Shown piece after piece: positions 974 through 7,919 of a stretch of DNA of 24,934 bases; the first letter of the stretch is position 1; every line of letters starts with the position of its first letter. The translations under genes and the position numbers were made by a program. The DNA is from Anaerolineae bacterium (GTDB lineage: Bacteria > Chloroflexota > Anaerolineae > Aggregatilineales > Phototrophicaceae): contig JACMMD010000833.1 of NCBI GenBank assembly GCA_014379235.1, positions 1 to 24,934 of the forward strand. Direction: 5' to 3'. The notes under the pieces were generated by a model that was not told where the DNA came from, made no database searches, and saw only the letters and a program-made list of their open reading frames with translations.

Positions 974-2104
974 TTAATTCGAGTTCGTGTCAAGTGATGG
1001 CAGCATGAAGGAGAAAGTTGTCAAGCCTGTCGATTCTTCCGAACGCGCAGTGAATTCGCCAGCGTGTGCCCGAGCTACCCAATACACAAAAGGGATGCCC
1101 ATCGCCACACTGGTTCGACTGCCCTTCTGCCTACCTTCCCAATGCGGGGCACGCAGAACGATTTGTTCCTCAAGTCCCGGTACAATGGCACGTCCGCTGT
1201 CTGTGAAACGAATCAAGATCATGCTGCTATCGGCCTGTGCGCTGACGTGCAGATGATCGCCTCGCATCGTAAACTTGACAACGTTGTCCAACAACGCAAT
1301 GAATGCCCGTTCGACCAAAGCGCTGTCGCAGATGGCAAGAAGACAGCCTGCGTCGGGCAAGGTGGTTTCAATACGTACAAACTTGGCTTCTAATAAGGGC
1401 TTCTGTGAAGTCAGCGCCTTCCGCAGCAGCAGGGTTAGATCGGTTTTCGAGAGGCGTAAATCAAATTCACCTGTTTCCAAACGGGCAAGATCGACTAAAT
1501 CACTGACGATATATAGTTGGCGATAGGCAGCGTCCAATGCGCCATGAAGCAACTGCATCATGTCAGCGTATTCATTCTGCATCACTTCGCTCATGCCGAA
1601 GATTGAGACAACCGCTTCCAGACTGCTAACAACGGTAGAAATCGGACTACGTAAGTCATGGCTGAGTAAGGCCGCCGCGCCGCGAACTTCATCTGGCGTG
1701 TCGCCAAGCAGTCGATGTGATATGGACACTGTGCCAATCTGATCGTCCGAATGCGGATTGGCTAACCATTGAGAGACCGCTGTCCAATCAAGGGGCTGAT
1801 CCATCACTACATCCGCGCCCGCCGAAAGTGCCGCCGCCATCAGCGTGGAATTCGTGAGATTGAGCGCCACAAGTGGAATTTGTGAAGCCGCGCATTTGAG
1901 CCGCCGACAGACTTCGATACCGTCGTATTCAGGGTTGGCGATTGCAACGAAAAACGCAGTAAGGGAATTCGCCCCTGCGAAGATCAGGGCTTCGTCTGAA
2001 GTTTGCAGCGAATGAAGTTCGTATCCAAGCCGTTTGAGGTTCGCCCGCAGCGGTTCGACTAGCTCTGGCGCACCGTTGCTCACCAAAATGAGGTTGGCGG
2101 TCAC
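974..2104 (-). CDS. Soluble hybrid: pseudo-receiver + HisKA + degenerate HATPase domain, 376 aa
   Basis: Receiver-like N-terminus lacks the phospho-Asp (FFVAIANP) and Lys (MDQP). H-box SHDLRSP is intact (His codon 1658-1660). N-box LLDNVVKF present; G1 is DSGRA and G2 is SVAMGI (degenerate). GTG start overlaps the upstream stop (GTGA). Confidence 0.85.
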   Translation of the reverse strand: MTANLILVSNGAPELVEPLRANLKRLGYELHSLQTSDEALIFAGANSLTAFFVAIANPEYDGIEVCRRLKCAASQIPLVALNLTNSTLMAAALSAGADVVMDQPLDWTAVSQWLANPHSDDQIGTVSISHRLLGDTPDEVRGAAALLSHDLRSPISTVVSSLEAVVSIFGMSEVMQNEYADMMQLLHGALDAAYRQLYIVSDLVDLARLETGEFDLRLSKTDLTLLLRKALTSQKPLLEAKFVRIETTLPDAGCLLAICDSALVERAFIALLDNVVKFTMRGDHLHVSAQADSSMILIRFTDSGRAIVPGLEEQIVLRAPHWEGRQKGSRTSVAMGIPFVYWVARAHAGEFTARSEESTGLTTFSFMLPSLDTNSN

Positions 2105-3141
2105 GCCAACAGCTCCACCACTTCATAAGCCATCACTGGCTCAGACCGTCCTTTGACCGTCAACGAGCCGATCATCTTGGCGTTAACTTCCTTGAGTACC
2201 CGCGCATAGGTCGCCTCGCTGACAAGGATTTGACTGCTGCGAGCCAGCCCTTGCAGCCGTGCTGCGAGATTGACCGTATCACCTACCGCCGTAAAATCCA
2301 TGATCTCTGATGTACCGACATTACCAACAACGGCCATGCCGCTATGGATACCGAAATTGATACGCATCCGGTAGCGCGCTTCAAAACCCTTGTAAAACTC
2401 TGGCAACGCCTCGCGGATGTCCAACGCCGATTTCACCGCTCGCAGCGCGTGATCGGATTGCTCTAACGGCGTATTGAACAACGCCATCACGCCGTCGCCG
2501 ATGAACTTATCTACTGTGCCCGCATGTTCCAAAATGATGCGAACAACCAGAGAATGATACATGTTGAGGATGCTCAACAGCTTTTCCGGTTCAGCGCGCT
2601 CCGAGATACCTGTGAAGTTTTCCAAATCCGTGAAAAGAACGGTCACTTCCTGCAAACGTCCACCAAGCGCAACTTGCGCTGGATTAGCCAGCAGTTGCTC
2701 AACCACCGCAGGCGAAACGAAACGCTCGAACGTGCTGCGGATCATTTGTTGTGTTTCACGCAGTCCATCGGTTTCAACCTTCGCGCGCAAACGGGTCTGA
2801 ATACGCGCCTTCAATTCGCGTGGATTAAACGGCTTCGTCAGGTAATCATCCGCTCCCGAACCCAAGCCCTGAACCCGCGCTTCAACATCGGCCATCGCCG
2901 TGAGCATCAACACCGGAATCTGCGCCGTAGCCGAATCACCTTTGAGAATCGCGCACACGGCGAAGCCGGACATACCCGGCATATTTACGTCGAGAATTAC
3001 AAGGTCTGGCAGCGCAGCCTGAGTGAGGGCGATTGTTTTAGGCCCATCTGCCGACTCGATTATCTCGTGCCCCATGCCCTCTAAAATATCTCGAATTAGC
3101 TGGCGGTTATCTTCGTTATCGTCAGCGACCAGAATCTTCAA
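2101..3141 (-). CDS. Response-regulator receiver + class III adenylate cyclase, 346 aa
   Basis: REC: ADD, ILDVNMP, LTA, TKP. Cyclase: VLFTDLENFT, DKFIGDG (adenine-specifying Lys), DFTAVGDTVNLAARLQ. TTG start with GAGG RBS. Confidence 0.93.
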   Translation of the reverse strand: MKILVADDNEDNRQLIRDILEGMGHEIIESADGPKTIALTQAALPDLVILDVNMPGMSGFAVCAILKGDSATAQIPVLMLTAMADVEARVQGLGSGADDYLTKPFNPRELKARIQTRLRAKVETDGLRETQQMIRSTFERFVSPAVVEQLLANPAQVALGGRLQEVTVLFTDLENFTGISERAEPEKLLSILNMYHSLVVRIILEHAGTVDKFIGDGVMALFNTPLEQSDHALRAVKSALDIREALPEFYKGFEARYRMRINFGIHSGMAVVGNVGTSEIMDFTAVGDTVNLAARLQGLARSSQILVSEATYARVLKEVNAKMIGSLTVKGRSEPVMAYEVVELLA

Positions 3142-3156
3142 AATCGTCCTCGTAGA

Positions 3157-3525
3157 TTAGCTGATGTATTTAGAAAGCTTGCTGGCTAACTCGCGCAAGT
3201 CAATTGGCTTGGAGACGTAATCATCGCAGCCTGCTTCTAAAGCGCGCTCACGATCACCAACCATCGCATGGGCGGTGAGCGCAATGATGGGGATATGCTG
3301 TAGTTCAGGGTCGGATTTAATCGTGCGCGAGGCCGTCCAACCGTCCATCAATGGCAGTGATAAGTCCATCAGGATAAGGTCAGGCCGTTCACTTGCTGCC
3401 ATCTCCACGCCCTGTTCGCCATCAAACGCCTGAACGATGTCATACTCCAACGACTGCAACACGTCCGAAATTAACGTCATGTTGTCAGGATTGTCTTCAA
3501 CGACCAGAATGCGCCCGTTACTCAT
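3157..3525 (-). CDS. Single-domain response regulator (DivK/CheY-like), 122 aa
   Basis: VEDN, ILMDLSLPLMDG, ALTAHAMVGDRERALEAGCDDYVSKP; all receiver catalytic residues are present. The TAHAM..D signature is DivK-like. Confidence 0.95.
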   Translation of the reverse strand: MSNGRILVVEDNPDNMTLISDVLQSLEYDIVQAFDGEQGVEMAASERPDLILMDLSLPLMDGWTASRTIKSDPELQHIPIIALTAHAMVGDRERALEAGCDDYVSKPIDLRELASKLSKYIS

Positions 3526-3527
3526 CT

Positions 3528-5039
3528 TTAAATAAAGTCTCCCCGGTTAATATTACAGCATCGAAACTGAGCGTCAACTGCTGGATACTCAATTAGCAAC
3601 CTCACAGGGCGCATTGCGGGTTCCGTTGTAGGCACATTTTGCGGTGGACTGACTGTAGGTAATGCCGCTTTTGAGTTTTCCGACATTGATTTCTGGTGCA
3701 CGGGCAGCGCGACAAAAAAGGTACTGCCCTCTCCGAGCGCACTTTTTACCCAGATCGACCCTTCATGTAATTCGATCAATTTTTTCGCAATCGCTAAACC
3801 TAACCCCGTGCCTTCAACATGCGCGGCGCGCACACTGTCGGCCCGCCCGAATTCCTCAAATATACGCGCTTGATCTTCGGGAGCGATGCCGATGCCCGTA
3901 TCGGTCACGGTAATGATAATCCAATTGCCATCGCTCAACCACCCGATAAAGGGCAGCTTAAAGGTTGTTGATGTCCCGCGCTCCACAAGGATCAAGATCG
4001 CGTCAATGGTGATTGACCCTTGTTGGGTGAACTTGATCGCATTCGTCAGCAGGTTCGTGAGTACCTGCTGAATACGCCCTTCATCGCCATACAGTGACGG
4101 TAAGCTCGGCTCGGCGTTGACCTTGATCGCCAGACCTTTACGTGTGTAATCCGCCTCGACGCCGATAACCGCTTGCTCAATGATACGCTCGATATGAAAA
4201 ACGCTGGTTTCAAGGTTGATGCGCCCGGTTTCGATCTTGCTCAAATCCAGTACGTTGTTAATAAGCTCCAACAAATATCTGCCGTTTCGATGAATTTTTT
4301 CAAGCCGGTCAAGCTGAGTTGCGTCCAATTCGCCATAGATGCCGCTCTGCAATAACTCACTGTAGCCCACGATAGAATTCAGCGGAGTACGCAGTTCCAG
4401 CCCCATATTGGAGAGAAACAGGCTCTTGGATTGGCTGGCCGTTTGTAGTTCCTGAGTCAAGCGCTCGACCAGAGTCTTCTGCCTCTGCAACTCGACAATG
4501 GCCTGCTGATGATTGCGTTGAGTGCCACGCGAGTCGTCGCTGACGCGGCTTAACGGCTCACGCAGATAGGTTTGCAGCGCAAACCGCGCTGTCCAACCTG
4601 CTGCGACTACGGTCAATATCTGGCTTATATTTGCCAGCAAATCGACAGGCATCCTGCTCCCAAATGCCGGAGTCAGAAGGAAATAGAACACATCAGCCAC
4701 CAGCGCGGCGATTAACAGCCCACAAAAAAGCTGTGTCCGTGCCGCTCCAGACATTACTCGCTCACTAAATCTGAACATCATCCAAGCGTAGAATACAACC
4801 GCTGCCCACAATGCTATCGACAACAGCCGCGCTGTGATTCCTATAATGCGGTCATCCAGCCGAAAGAGATACAGTGCTCCCCAGATCGCCAGCACAGCGC
4901 ACAGCCCCGCGAATAGACTGTGTGACCGCCAGCCTTCCGACTGGCCCCAAACGAGCAGCAGCGCACCGCCGGCCAATGCCAGAGTCAACAAACTTAGGAG
5001 CGCAACTATCCAACTAGTGAACCCTGAAAACAAGTCCAT
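3528..5039 (-). CDS. Membrane histidine-kinase-like sensor lacking the phospho-acceptor His (pseudokinase candidate), about 503 aa
   Basis: About 5 hydrophobic helices and a coiled coil. H-box reads FLSNMGLELRTPLNSIVG (His to Leu, codon 4398-4400). N (NLLTNAIKFT), G1 (DTGIG), F (IFEEF) and G2 (GTGLGL) are intact. ATG 5039 is preferred over TTG 5075 because a TATACT -10 lies at 5086-5081. Confidence 0.9.
   Translation of the reverse strand: MDLFSGFTSWIVALLSLLTLALAGGALLLVWGQSEGWRSHSLFAGLCAVLAIWGALYLFRLDDRIIGITARLLSIALWAAVVFYAWMMFRFSERVMSGAARTQLFCGLLIAALVADVFYFLLTPAFGSRMPVDLLANISQILTVVAAGWTARFALQTYLREPLSRVSDDSRGTQRNHQQAIVELQRQKTLVERLTQELQTASQSKSLFLSNMGLELRTPLNSIVGYSELLQSGIYGELDATQLDRLEKIHRNGRYLLELINNVLDLSKIETGRINLETSVFHIERIIEQAVIGVEADYTRKGLAIKVNAEPSLPSLYGDEGRIQQVLTNLLTNAIKFTQQGSITIDAILILVERGTSTTFKLPFIGWLSDGNWIIITVTDTGIGIAPEDQARIFEEFGRADSVRAAHVEGTGLGLAIAKKLIELHEGSIWVKSALGEGSTFFVALPVHQKSMSENSKAALPTVSPPQNVPTTEPAMRPVRLLIEYPAVDAQFRCCNINRGDFI
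3550..3577 (-). promoter_or_regulatory. Candidate internal sigma70 promoter for the response regulator, inside the kinase 3' end
   Basis: Minus strand TTGACG (3577-3572), 16-nt spacer, TAATAT (3555-3550), then GGGGAG upstream of the ATG at 3525. Confidence 0.4.
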
Positions 5040-5189: not shown

Positions 5190-5477
5190 CTAGGGCTTCA
5201 AACGCCGGACGTTATCCGCTTCTAGCGTATCGGGCTGGCTGCGCTTGGCCCCCTTGCGATCAGGGGCGCGTGTCGGCTCAGACTCACCGATGAGCGCTTC
5301 GATACGCATCACCGCTTCACGGTCAAATTCCTGGAAGCCGCATACATCACACGTCCATAACAGCACATCGGGAACGCTGACCGGCATGTTACCGATCATC
5401 CGCATGTACGTCGCCTGCGAGGGCTGGTAATGACCGATATGACAGTATGAGCACACGTAAGGCGATTTGTCGGTCAT
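5190..5477 (-). CDS. YgiT-type zinc-finger protein (stand-alone, no HTH), about 95 aa
   Basis: CSYC...CDVC pairs with the 'VSVPDVLLWTCDVCG.QEF' pattern. ATG 5477 follows a GGAGAGG RBS; the ORF track starts at 5510. Confidence 0.8.
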   Translation of the reverse strand: MTDKSPYVCSYCHIGHYQPSQATYMRMIGNMPVSVPDVLLWTCDVCGFQEFDREAVMRIEALIGESEPTRAPDRKGAKRSQPDTLEADNVRRLKP

Positions 5478-5502
5478 TTCGTCCTCTCCATTCATGAAGT
5501 AA

Positions 5503-6138
5503 CTAGTCATCAGGGTAGGCGATGTGGGTTACAAGTCCCCACTCTGACGGCGGCCAATAACGGACAAGCGCCTCGCCAACGATAAACTGCCGGTTTACCG
5601 TCCCGAAAGCGCGCGAATCGCTGCTATGGTTACGGTTATCGCCCATAACGAAATATTCATCCGGGCCGAGCGTCCACACGTCATCACGGCAGCGTCCGGG
5701 TTCGCAAGGTTCATTGATATAGGGTTCATCGAGCTGGACATCGTTTACATACACCAGCGTATCGCGGATTTCGACAGTATCGCCCGGCAGACCAATCACA
5801 CGCTTAATGTAATCTTCTTCGGGATTGCCCGGATAATGGAAGACCACAATGTCGCCGCGCTGCGGCTGGTCAAGCAGATAGTTCAAACGACTGACAATCA
5901 AGAATTCGCCCGTATGGAAGTTCGGCTGCATACTGGGGCCTTGAACGATGAAACGCGCACTGGCCAAATTCACCAGCGAATAGATCGCGGCGATCAGCAC
6001 CAGCGTGTCGATGATTTCACGCATAAAGCTGCGACGCTGGAGTTTAGGGCGTGGCGTCGTCACTTCGGCAGTGTCCGCATACTGCTGCGGTGCTTGAACT
6101 TGCGGTTGTGCAGTCGGTTGGGTTGAAATTTCTTGCAA
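5503..6138 (-). CDS. lepB: Signal peptidase I, 211 aa
   Basis: One TM helix, GPSMQP (catalytic Ser), RGDIVVF, YIKRVIGLPGD (catalytic Lys), GDNRNHSSDSR. TTG start. Confidence 0.96.
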   Translation of the reverse strand: MQEISTQPTAQPQVQAPQQYADTAEVTTPRPKLQRRSFMREIIDTLVLIAAIYSLVNLASARFIVQGPSMQPNFHTGEFLIVSRLNYLLDQPQRGDIVVFHYPGNPEEDYIKRVIGLPGDTVEIRDTLVYVNDVQLDEPYINEPCEPGRCRDDVWTLGPDEYFVMGDNRNHSSDSRAFGTVNRQFIVGEALVRYWPPSEWGLVTHIAYPDD

Positions 6139-6347: not shown

Positions 6348-7919
6348 TTGGCTGGTGAACGAATTCTAGTGGTTGATGACGGACGCGAAAACCGCGAATT
6401 CGTGGTTGAATACGTCCTGCAACCCAACGGCTATGAAGCGCTTGTGGCGAAAGACGGCAGAGAAGGTCTCGATATGGTGCTTAAGCATCAGCCTGACCTC
6501 ATTCTGCTTGATTTGCAAATGCCGCGCATGAACGGCATCGAAGTGTTGCAAGCGTTGTCCGAACGTAATCTCGATATTCCCGTTATTTTGATGACTTTTC
6601 ATGGCTCGGAAGAGGTCGCCATCGAGGTTTATCGACTCGGTGTGCGCGACTATGTGAAGAAGCCCTATTCGGTGGACGAAATGCTGGCGGCCATCGAGCG
6701 CAGCCTGACCGAAATCCGACTGCGGCGTGAGAAAGAAGCGCTTACCGAGCGCGTTATCTATGCCAATCGTGAACTGCAACAGCGGGTTCAAGAACTCAAC
6801 GTCCTCTACAGCGTCGGTAAGAACGTCACCGCTTTAGCTGACCTGAACCAACTGCTGCCCAACATCGTCGATGCCGCCGCGCAAGTCACCCACGCGGAAG
6901 AAGGCTACCTCTACCTGACTGAAGAGACGATATTACGCTGTCGGGCGCAGAAGCGTGTGAACAAGGCCCGCGCCGAAGCCGCCGACTTTGAAGCGAAAGA
7001 CCGTATCGCGTTACACGTCGCGCAGACGGGGCAAGCGATGATGCTCAATCCTGAACAATTGAACACCAGCGGCGTGGTTTCGCTGTCGTACACGCCGCTG
7101 GTGTTCCGCGAAAAGGCCATCGGCGTACTGGGCGTGCGAACCGTCACTGAAGGCGGGCACATCTTCACCAAGCACGACAGTGCCCTGCTGAGTGCCCTGT
7201 CTGATTACGCCGCGATTGCTATCGAAAATTCGCACAACTTCGAAGAACTGCAAAAGACCAGAGAGCGTGAAAGCGCGCAAATCCGCAGCACGTTCAAGCG
7301 CTTCGTACCGCCCTCTGTCGTAGACCGCGTGCTCGATCATCCCGAAACTTTGGAGCTTGGTGGCGCGCGGCAAGAAGTCACGATTCTGTTCGCGGACATT
7401 CGCGGTTACACCGCATGGGCCGAACATGCCCCGCCCGAACAGGTCATTGAAGTCCTGAACAATTACCTGAGTCTTGCCGCCGAAGTTGTTCTGGCGTGGC
7501 AGGGTACGCTGGATAAGTTCTTTGGCGATGGGCTGATGGCCATCTTCAACGCGCCCGATCAACAAGAAGACCATGCCATCCGTGCCGCTGTCGCCGCATT
7601 AGACCTTATCAGTGTGGCGAAAGAAATGTCCGAACGGCGCGGTTACAGCCTGTCGTTTAGCGTGGGACTGCATCTGGGCGAGGCTGTCGTCGGCTACGTA
7701 GGCACGGCGCAGGCCATGAACTACACCGCCATTGGCGACGTAGTGAACCTCGCCAAGCGGATTCAAGAACATGCCGCGCCGGGCCAAATTCTGATCACCG
7801 ACACCGTGCATGAACAGCTTGGGGAATTGGCGACCTCGCAACCGCTTGGTCAGCTCAAATTCAAGAACCGCCAACAGCCAGCAACAGTGTACGAGTTACA
7901 AGACATCAAGAACGACTAG
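6348..7919 (+). CDS. Receiver + coiled coil + GAF + class III adenylate cyclase, 523 aa
   Basis: REC: VDD, LLDLQMP, MTFHG, KKP. GAF: IVDAAAQVTHAEEGYLYL...PLVFREKAIGVL...LSALSDYAAIAIEN. Cyclase: LFADIRGYT, DKFFGDG, NYTAIGDVVNLAKRIQ. TTG start with GAGG RBS. Confidence 0.93.
   Translation: MAGERILVVDDGRENREFVVEYVLQPNGYEALVAKDGREGLDMVLKHQPDLILLDLQMPRMNGIEVLQALSERNLDIPVILMTFHGSEEVAIEVYRLGVRDYVKKPYSVDEMLAAIERSLTEIRLRREKEALTERVIYANRELQQRVQELNVLYSVGKNVTALADLNQLLPNIVDAAAQVTHAEEGYLYLTEETILRCRAQKRVNKARAEAADFEAKDRIALHVAQTGQAMMLNPEQLNTSGVVSLSYTPLVFREKAIGVLGVRTVTEGGHIFTKHDSALLSALSDYAAIAIENSHNFEELQKTRERESAQIRSTFKRFVPPSVVDRVLDHPETLELGGARQEVTILFADIRGYTAWAEHAPPEQVIEVLNNYLSLAAEVVLAWQGTLDKFFGDGLMAIFNAPDQQEDHAIRAAVAALDLISVAKEMSERRGYSLSFSVGLHLGEAVVGYVGTAQAMNYTAIGDVVNLAKRIQEHAAPGQILITDTVHEQLGELATSQPLGQLKFKNRQQPATVYELQDIKND

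Follow-up and report, generated by a model that had tools for sequence, protein, structure and literature searches.

A His-less membrane HisKA protein beside a DivK-type receiver in Chloroflexota, with apparent parallel loss of kinase residues among its orthologues

The HK1 locus

The window, that is, the whole stretch of DNA analyzed here (24,934 nucleotides of an Anaerolineae bacterium; assembly GCA_014379235.1, contig JACMMD010000833.1), encodes a membrane sensor kinase homolog, HK1, together with the genes and features below. P0002 and P0003 are its two close orthologues, and L031 and L058 are contigs compared with this one.

3528..5039, minus strand: HK1 (P0001, 503 aa), a membrane HisKA/HATPase_c protein with five TM helices, a coiled coil, a His-less DHp domain and an intact CA domain
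4421..5039, minus strand: membrane sensor and coiled coil of HK1, of HisKA_7TM-like ancestry, about two central helices deleted
4401-4403, minus strand: Gly213 (GGG) in place of Ser, just before Leu214
4398..4400, minus strand: Leu214 (CTG) at the phospho-acceptor His position, common to P0001, P0002 and P0003
4386..4397, minus strand: Glu215 (H+1, kinase base) to Thr218 (H+4, phosphatase residue), both kept
4041..4055, minus strand: N box, both Asn (329 and 333) kept; the first is missing in the Glu-less sister clade
3798..3902, minus strand: G1, F and G2 ATP-binding boxes, canonical
3528..3603, minus strand: C-terminal read-through of HK1, from a 1-bp deletion (~3603) relative to L031/L058; modeled with low confidence
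3157..3525, minus strand: single-domain DivK-type receiver, 122 aa, with intact Asp; presumed HK1 substrate
2101..3141, minus strand: receiver fused to a class III nucleotide cyclase; alternative HK1 substrate and likely output
974..2104, minus strand: HK2, with a degenerate receiver, HisKA with invariant His-Asp and a degenerate CA domain
5190-5510, minus strand: small CxxC protein, upstream synteny marker
5503-6138, minus strand: signal peptidase I, upstream synteny marker
6348..7919, plus strand: receiver-GAF-cyclase, divergently transcribed and conserved beside the HK1 operon

The P0002 and P0003 loci have the same order as this one: signal peptidase, small CxxC protein, HK1, single-domain receiver, receiver-cyclase, HK2 and an aldolase. 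The signal peptidase is a single gene here, and many relatives have two or three in tandem at the same place. A promoter and terminator scan of the locus gave background level only, and literature searches for the HK1 locus and for Phototrophicales kinases returned nothing.

The H-box codons of HK1 (minus strand, 4380-4420) are TTT CTC TCC AAT ATG GGG CTG GAA CTG CGT ACT CCG CTG, so that Leu214 is followed by E-L-R-T-P-L-N, with Glu215 encoded by GAA (4395-4397) and Thr218 by ACT (4386-4388). An earlier note on this DNA had reported that Leu replaces the H-box His; the minus-strand codon bears this out, and the same Gly-Leu-Glu is found in both close orthologues. The note had also dismissed a single-base sequencing error, rightly, as CTG is two changes away from CAC/CAT and the same codons occur in an independent assembly.

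The reading frame is open and matches both HisKA (E 3e-17, 62.7 bits) and HATPase_c (E 2e-29, 102.7 bits) above the cut-offs, giving HK1 the DHp and HATPase_c domains of the class I (HisKA) sensor kinase fold. Its N, G1, F and G2 boxes are canonical and the acidic H+1 residue is present, but Leu214 stands where an active autokinase has its phospho-acceptor His, and HK1 is therefore predicted to be capable of neither DHp autophosphorylation nor phosphate transfer. Thr218, Pro219 and a docking set identical to that of canonical orthologues are all in place, features that are necessary but insufficient for a phosphatase-type HisKA protein, as the case of DivL illustrates (discussed below). The AlphaFold model (mean pLDDT 77.5, pTM 0.49) has five N-terminal helices, the fifth continuous via the coiled coil into DHp helix 1, followed by an ordinary CA domain.

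The description of HK1 in the earlier note as an otherwise intact membrane kinase is correct for the ATP-binding boxes but not for the two ends of the protein, as the membrane domain has five helices versus about seven in relatives and the tail is a read-through. HisKA_7TM (PF16927) kinases share the coiled-coil/DHp/CA layout of HK1, and some HK1 orthologues match that family (best E 5e-11 and 2e-10), whereas HK1 lacks about two central helices as well as the His and gives no match to the Pfam model. Two further orthologues on separate branches, one His-Lys and one canonical (P0037 and P0045), lack roughly the same central TM helices, so that trimming of this domain is recurrent. The 1-bp deletion lengthens HK1 by about 22 residues relative to L058/L031, to 2 nt before the receiver start codon; this tight HK1-receiver gap is private to the present assembly and may be an error.

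Orthologues of HK1 and selection on the His-less protein

Gly-Leu-Glu also occurs in P0002 (85% identical; one JGI contig and one Logan contig with the same codons) and in P0003 (78%), so that Leu is present in three independent assemblies and in all three members of the clade. A profile search of 1.8 billion representatives (50%-representative) found no further cluster, leaving three known members only, and a metagenome scan added the L031 contig alone.

The P0002 genome differs from this one by 1.1-1.6% in the regions flanking the locus and by 26.6% at the nucleotide level over the sensor and coiled coil, a combination that allows a usable test of selection. Relative to this near-identical genome, the DHp domain has 12 synonymous and no replacement changes (dN 0, dS 0.295; binomial P 5e-8), and the CA domain has 11 synonymous and three replacement changes (dN/dS 0.08). 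The cytoplasmic part as a whole has 33 synonymous versus eight non-synonymous changes (P 5e-14 against the neutral expectation), and neutrality is rejected even for the TM part (dN/dS 0.31; P 1e-6). Root-to-tip length is 0.76 for the Leu clade versus 0.77 for canonical His-Glu orthologues, with no acceleration in rate. Loss of the His is thus fixed in the lineage, and the DHp domain, CA domain and docking face are under strong purifying selection; HK1 therefore combines the fixed non-His residue and the purifying selection expected of a functional His-less pseudokinase.

These data also bear on whether HK1 is an assembly error or an incipient pseudogene, a reading that the shortened membrane domain, the frameshifted tail and the fact that many relatives have lost the gene altogether would favor. 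The earlier note had proposed aligning close orthologues, and had reasoned that His in all of them combined with relaxed selection on this copy would mark a pseudogene; the alignment instead shows Leu in both relatives and a DHp domain without a single replacement change. Given that an independent assembly has identical codons, that the residues recur at 78% identity, that dN/dS is 0 for the DHp domain, 0.08 for the CA domain and 0.31 for the TM part, and that no long branch is seen, we reject both explanations, which are now scarcely credible.

Within the sensor (window positions 4421-5039), divergence from L058/L031 peaks at up to 40% per 200 bp (dS 0.87) and fades to 1-2% within about 1 kb on either side. 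In the TM part, P0002 is nearer to P0003 (117/163 positions) than to P0001 (105/163). By sequence, the peak reads as an old allele that the otherwise near-identical genomes have either retained or acquired by recombination, and its presence suggests that ecological selection still acts on the input side.

Syntenic HK1 orthologues are found across the family and order, the majority of them His-Glu; in sister families the HK1 slot contains two to four tandem membrane kinases, some of which match HisKA_7TM. We aligned 62 orthologue rows, which are kin and include some near-duplicates, so the counts that follow are not independent: 39 are His-Glu and 23 lack the His or the Glu. The deviant rows comprise Leu-Glu (the HK1 clade), His-Lys, His-Arg, Gln-Lys, His-Gln and one more degenerate form. 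The H+4 Thr is kept in 22 of these 23, and the Pro and docking set in all but one or two, while the first N-box Asn is lost in 19 of them versus four of the 39 intact rows. Two of the Glu-less relatives also have His replaced by Gln, and one has Thr replaced by Val.

In IQ-TREE analyses of alignments lacking residues 205-215 and 329 (the H-box columns and the N-box Asn), with tandem paralogues, near-duplicates and some long branches omitted, the Leu clade (support 100) is sister to a Glu-less clade (94-96) with UFBoot values of 90 and 87 in two taxon sets. The tree of flanking genes gives the same sister grouping weakly (0.69). The Glu-less clade is thus probably the sister of the Leu clade. 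FastTree had also placed two fused proteins with GHE and GHQ motifs in the kinase-dead clade; this grouping disappeared once the H-box context was removed, so they are treated here as separate events.

In the sister clade two kinase-specific residues, the H+1 Glu and the N-box Asn, are gone, yet the H+4 Thr and the docking face remain. Because Glu and Asn survive on the HK1 branch and His in most of the sister clade, the simplest history has two separate kinase-killing changes. On this history, kinase activity appears to have been lost twice, by different routes, from a His-Glu ancestor, with moderate tree support. This pattern suggests that HK1 and its Glu-less counterpart now only dephosphorylate or bind the neighboring regulator.

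Neighboring genes and candidate phosphate donors

The adjacent receiver is of the DivK type by sequence (E 2e-27 to DivK). Its helix-1 residues hardly vary from one orthologue to the next, regardless of the form that HK1 takes. In 17 loci of the family the receiver, receiver-cyclase and HK2 persist while the HK1 slot is empty or, mostly, filled by microcompartment shell genes. At L289-L295 and L299-L305, the slot contains a highly conserved shell pair, one BMC-like (weak Pfam hit) and one EutN/CcmL (strong hit); in these HK1-less genomes the pair is flanked by the receiver on one side and by the CxxC or signal peptidase gene on the other. HK1 was not found elsewhere in five near-complete HK2-bearing genomes, in a search whose query finds HK1 in controls at E 1e-16 to 1e-20. 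Because the receiver persists where HK1 is not found, gene content implies that it must have a phosphate source other than HK1.

The closest DHp domain in the genome belongs to a GAF-GAF-GAF hybrid kinase on contig C124 (111 bits, versus 116 for HK1 against itself), which is identical to HK1 at 15 of 20 helix-1 docking residues. Each of the four Glu-less genomes, as well as the single HK1-less genome examined, has a kinase of this type with intact His, Glu and Asn. We infer that the C124 hybrid kinase is the best candidate donor for the receiver.

HK2 retains an invariant His-Asp, but the first N-box Asn and the G1 and G2 glycines are missing in all homologues examined. Its ATP lid is rewritten, with R-T-S-V invariant in 14 of 14 aligned sequences, and its receiver is degenerate. 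The HK2 family is present in 53 of 301 genomes of the order, conserved in part of it independently of HK1, and was found in 0 of 28 genomes searched in the Glu-less genus. HK2 was also considered as a ChpT and rejected, with no PF10090 hit among 14 HK2 homologues and no ChpT among the best 60 PDB matches. Possibly the family represents an undescribed phosphotransfer protein.

Possible functions of HK1

His-less HisKA proteins are a known kind, with DivL and PsmA as examples, and His-less and phosphatase-only sensor kinases are known from few unrelated cases. What is new here is that a single orthologous group in Chloroflexota contains a natural series of distinct kinase-killing substitutions, together with a trimmed five-helix sensor and divergent alleles of it. 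DivL of Caulobacter crescentus (PMC4211667; PDB 4Q20) resembles HK1 in its HisKA fold, its replaced His, its retained E-L-R-T-P and a DivK-type receiver as presumed partner. The deposited DivL sequence reads Y-E-L-R-T-P. HK1 differs in having Leu rather than Tyr at the His position and a five-TM membrane domain in place of PAS domains (none in Pfam; in the model the TM helices run into the coiled coil), in lying directly upstream of the receiver gene, and in its phylum, and it gives no sign of orthology to DivL (E 9e-23, rank 18). A search of this genome (85.7% complete) for ChpT with PF10090 gave two marginal hits only, inside long ordinary kinases. By sequence, HK1 lies outside the DivL family. 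Of the term DivL-like pseudokinase used in the earlier note, the second word stands, for a fixed, selected and apparently autokinase-dead HisKA protein beside a DivK-type receiver; the first, in view of the missing PAS, the Leu and the ChpT result, is valid as analogy only.

PsmA of Streptomyces is likewise a conserved His-less HisKA pseudokinase, but it has no H+4 Thr/Asn, its His position varies freely and it acts via DivIVA binding (PMC12963549), whereas HK1 has a fixed Leu, a retained Thr and a cognate receiver adjacent. For CrdS, HK853 and two further HisKA kinases, the kinase reaction alone depends on the H+1 acid, and the phosphatase reaction alone on the H+4 Thr/Asn (PMC3510030). DrBphP of Deinococcus radiodurans, with a non-acidic H+1 residue and no N-box Asn, is a natural phosphatase-only HisKA protein (10.1101/2020.06.26.173310), and the joint loss of these two residues is shared by the Glu-less sister clade. 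Like DrBphP and the engineered CrdS variants E372A and H371A, HK1 has lost a kinase-specific residue and kept the H+4 residue and the docking residues; unlike them, it has lost the His itself, keeps Glu and Asn, and has a membrane sensor.

The earlier note had treated the ExxT motif as the retained phosphatase element. The motif is indeed kept (Glu215, Thr218), but its Glu is a kinase rather than a phosphatase residue (PMC3510030), and DivL, with Y-E-L-R-T-P, binds DivK~P and stabilizes and protects it without dephosphorylation (PMC4211667). Because DivL has ExxT yet protects DivK~P, the motif cannot separate a phosphatase from a binder, and we reject it as proof of phosphatase activity. The stronger argument, drawn from the alignments, is that the sister clade has lost kinase-only residues in parallel.

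Our preferred reading, to which we give about an even chance, is that HK1 no longer acts as a kinase but works at the membrane as a phosphatase under signal control, with the adjacent single-domain receiver, the receiver-cyclase or both as substrates and a conserved paralogous kinase as the source of phosphate. HK1 would still dimerize and bind ATP/ADP, and its DHp domain would dock the phosphorylated adjacent receiver, or that of the next gene's cyclase, with Thr218 speeding hydrolysis of the aspartyl-phosphate at a rate set by the trimmed membrane domain. The phosphate would come from another kinase, of which the C124 hybrid is the best candidate, and the output would be the level of receiver phosphorylation acting on cyclic-nucleotide synthesis, as gene order alone suggests. 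HisKA enzymes differ in how far their phosphatase activity needs the His: it survives the loss in CrdS and EnvZ, is weakened in HK853 and disappears in PleC. CrdS H371A keeps most of its phosphatase activity (CrdA~P half-life 2.6 versus 53.5 min; PMC3510030), PleC H610A loses both activities (PMC3510030), and HK853 H260A has diminished phosphatase activity (PMC5727384). Because of the last two, His to Leu may cost more than Glu to Lys. Further counterpoints are that Thr218 is also part of the docking face and might have been kept for binding alone; that support for the sister group is moderate (87-90, and 0.69 in the flanking-gene tree); and that the proposed donor is a hybrid kinase with its own receivers.

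A rival reading is a non-catalytic binder, in which HK1, like DivL, would shield or sequester the (phosphorylated) receiver at the membrane, or read its state, without hydrolysis. The absent His, docking residues the same as in His-bearing orthologues and the DivK-type receiver all fit this alternative, and in DivL precisely this set of motifs goes with a lack of phosphatase activity (PMC4211667). However, phospho-specific binding by DivL requires the PAS domains (PMC4211667) that HK1 does not have, and the PF10090 search of this 85.7% complete genome yielded no ChpT-like stand-alone gene. We favor a phosphatase because the sister clade, which mostly keeps His and loses Glu in the pattern of engineered and natural phosphatase-only enzymes, lost kinase-only residues in parallel while Thr, docking face and ATP pocket were kept; a pure binder is, in our estimate, a rather unlikely though serious alternative. 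Quite improbable is a natural split class I kinase, in which the CA domain of the His-less membrane HK1 would phosphorylate the invariant His of HK2 in trans within a heterodimer, HK1 alone would act as receiver phosphatase, and the sister lineage would have lost HK2 and let its kinase-only residues decay. HK2 is kept at all three Leu loci with its His-Asp and without the first N-box Asn and G-box glycines, and within the kinase-dead clade the Leu branch alone keeps both HK2 and the N-box Asn. Predicted as a complex, the cytoplasmic parts of HK1 and HK2 scored 0.33, under the mark of 0.34, and this prediction is counted neither for nor against the split kinase. Mutual dependence is not seen, however: HK2 occurs in the 17 loci with an empty or shell-gene-filled HK1 slot and in the five near-complete genomes where HK1 was not found, many genomes have HK1 without HK2, and HK2 coexists with fully canonical HK1 in sister families. 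Since HK2 occurs both without HK1 and beside canonical HK1, its degeneracy is older than and independent of the loss of the His. The correlation, moreover, amounts to one evolutionary event, and retention of both Glu and Asn along a branch of 0.53 is not improbable by default.

Heterodimer inhibition follows a RetS/GacS-like logic, and HK1 might in this way pair with a paralogous kinase of similar DHp domain, such as the C124 hybrid, and damp its activity according to a membrane signal. The complete conservation of the DHp domain between alleles, its closeness to that of the C124 kinase and the conservation of this kinase across the family are consistent with such pairing. We nevertheless consider it very improbable, as it leaves unexplained why HK1 stays directly upstream of the receiver in kinase-dead lineages.

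The orthologous group forms a natural series (His-Glu, Leu-Glu, His-Lys/Arg, Gln-Lys) on one scaffold with one conserved receiver, and bears on the route from a bifunctional sensor to a dedicated phosphatase or binder, within the reach that an uncultured host allows.

Tandem paralogues in other families of the order (P0031; L176:6945) have Leu or Tyr at the His position (S-L-E and S-Y-E), and on this basis the loss of His is recurrent within this kinase array. In this genome His-less DHp domains are rare (four of 66 DHp hits). The three besides HK1, on contigs C953, C287 and C282, have Gln, Gln and Lys, respectively, the latter two with weak scores. Contig C287 also encodes (L317:226-6060, minus strand) a 1945-aa fusion of an ammonium transporter, PAS/GAF domains, a histidine kinase and two receivers.
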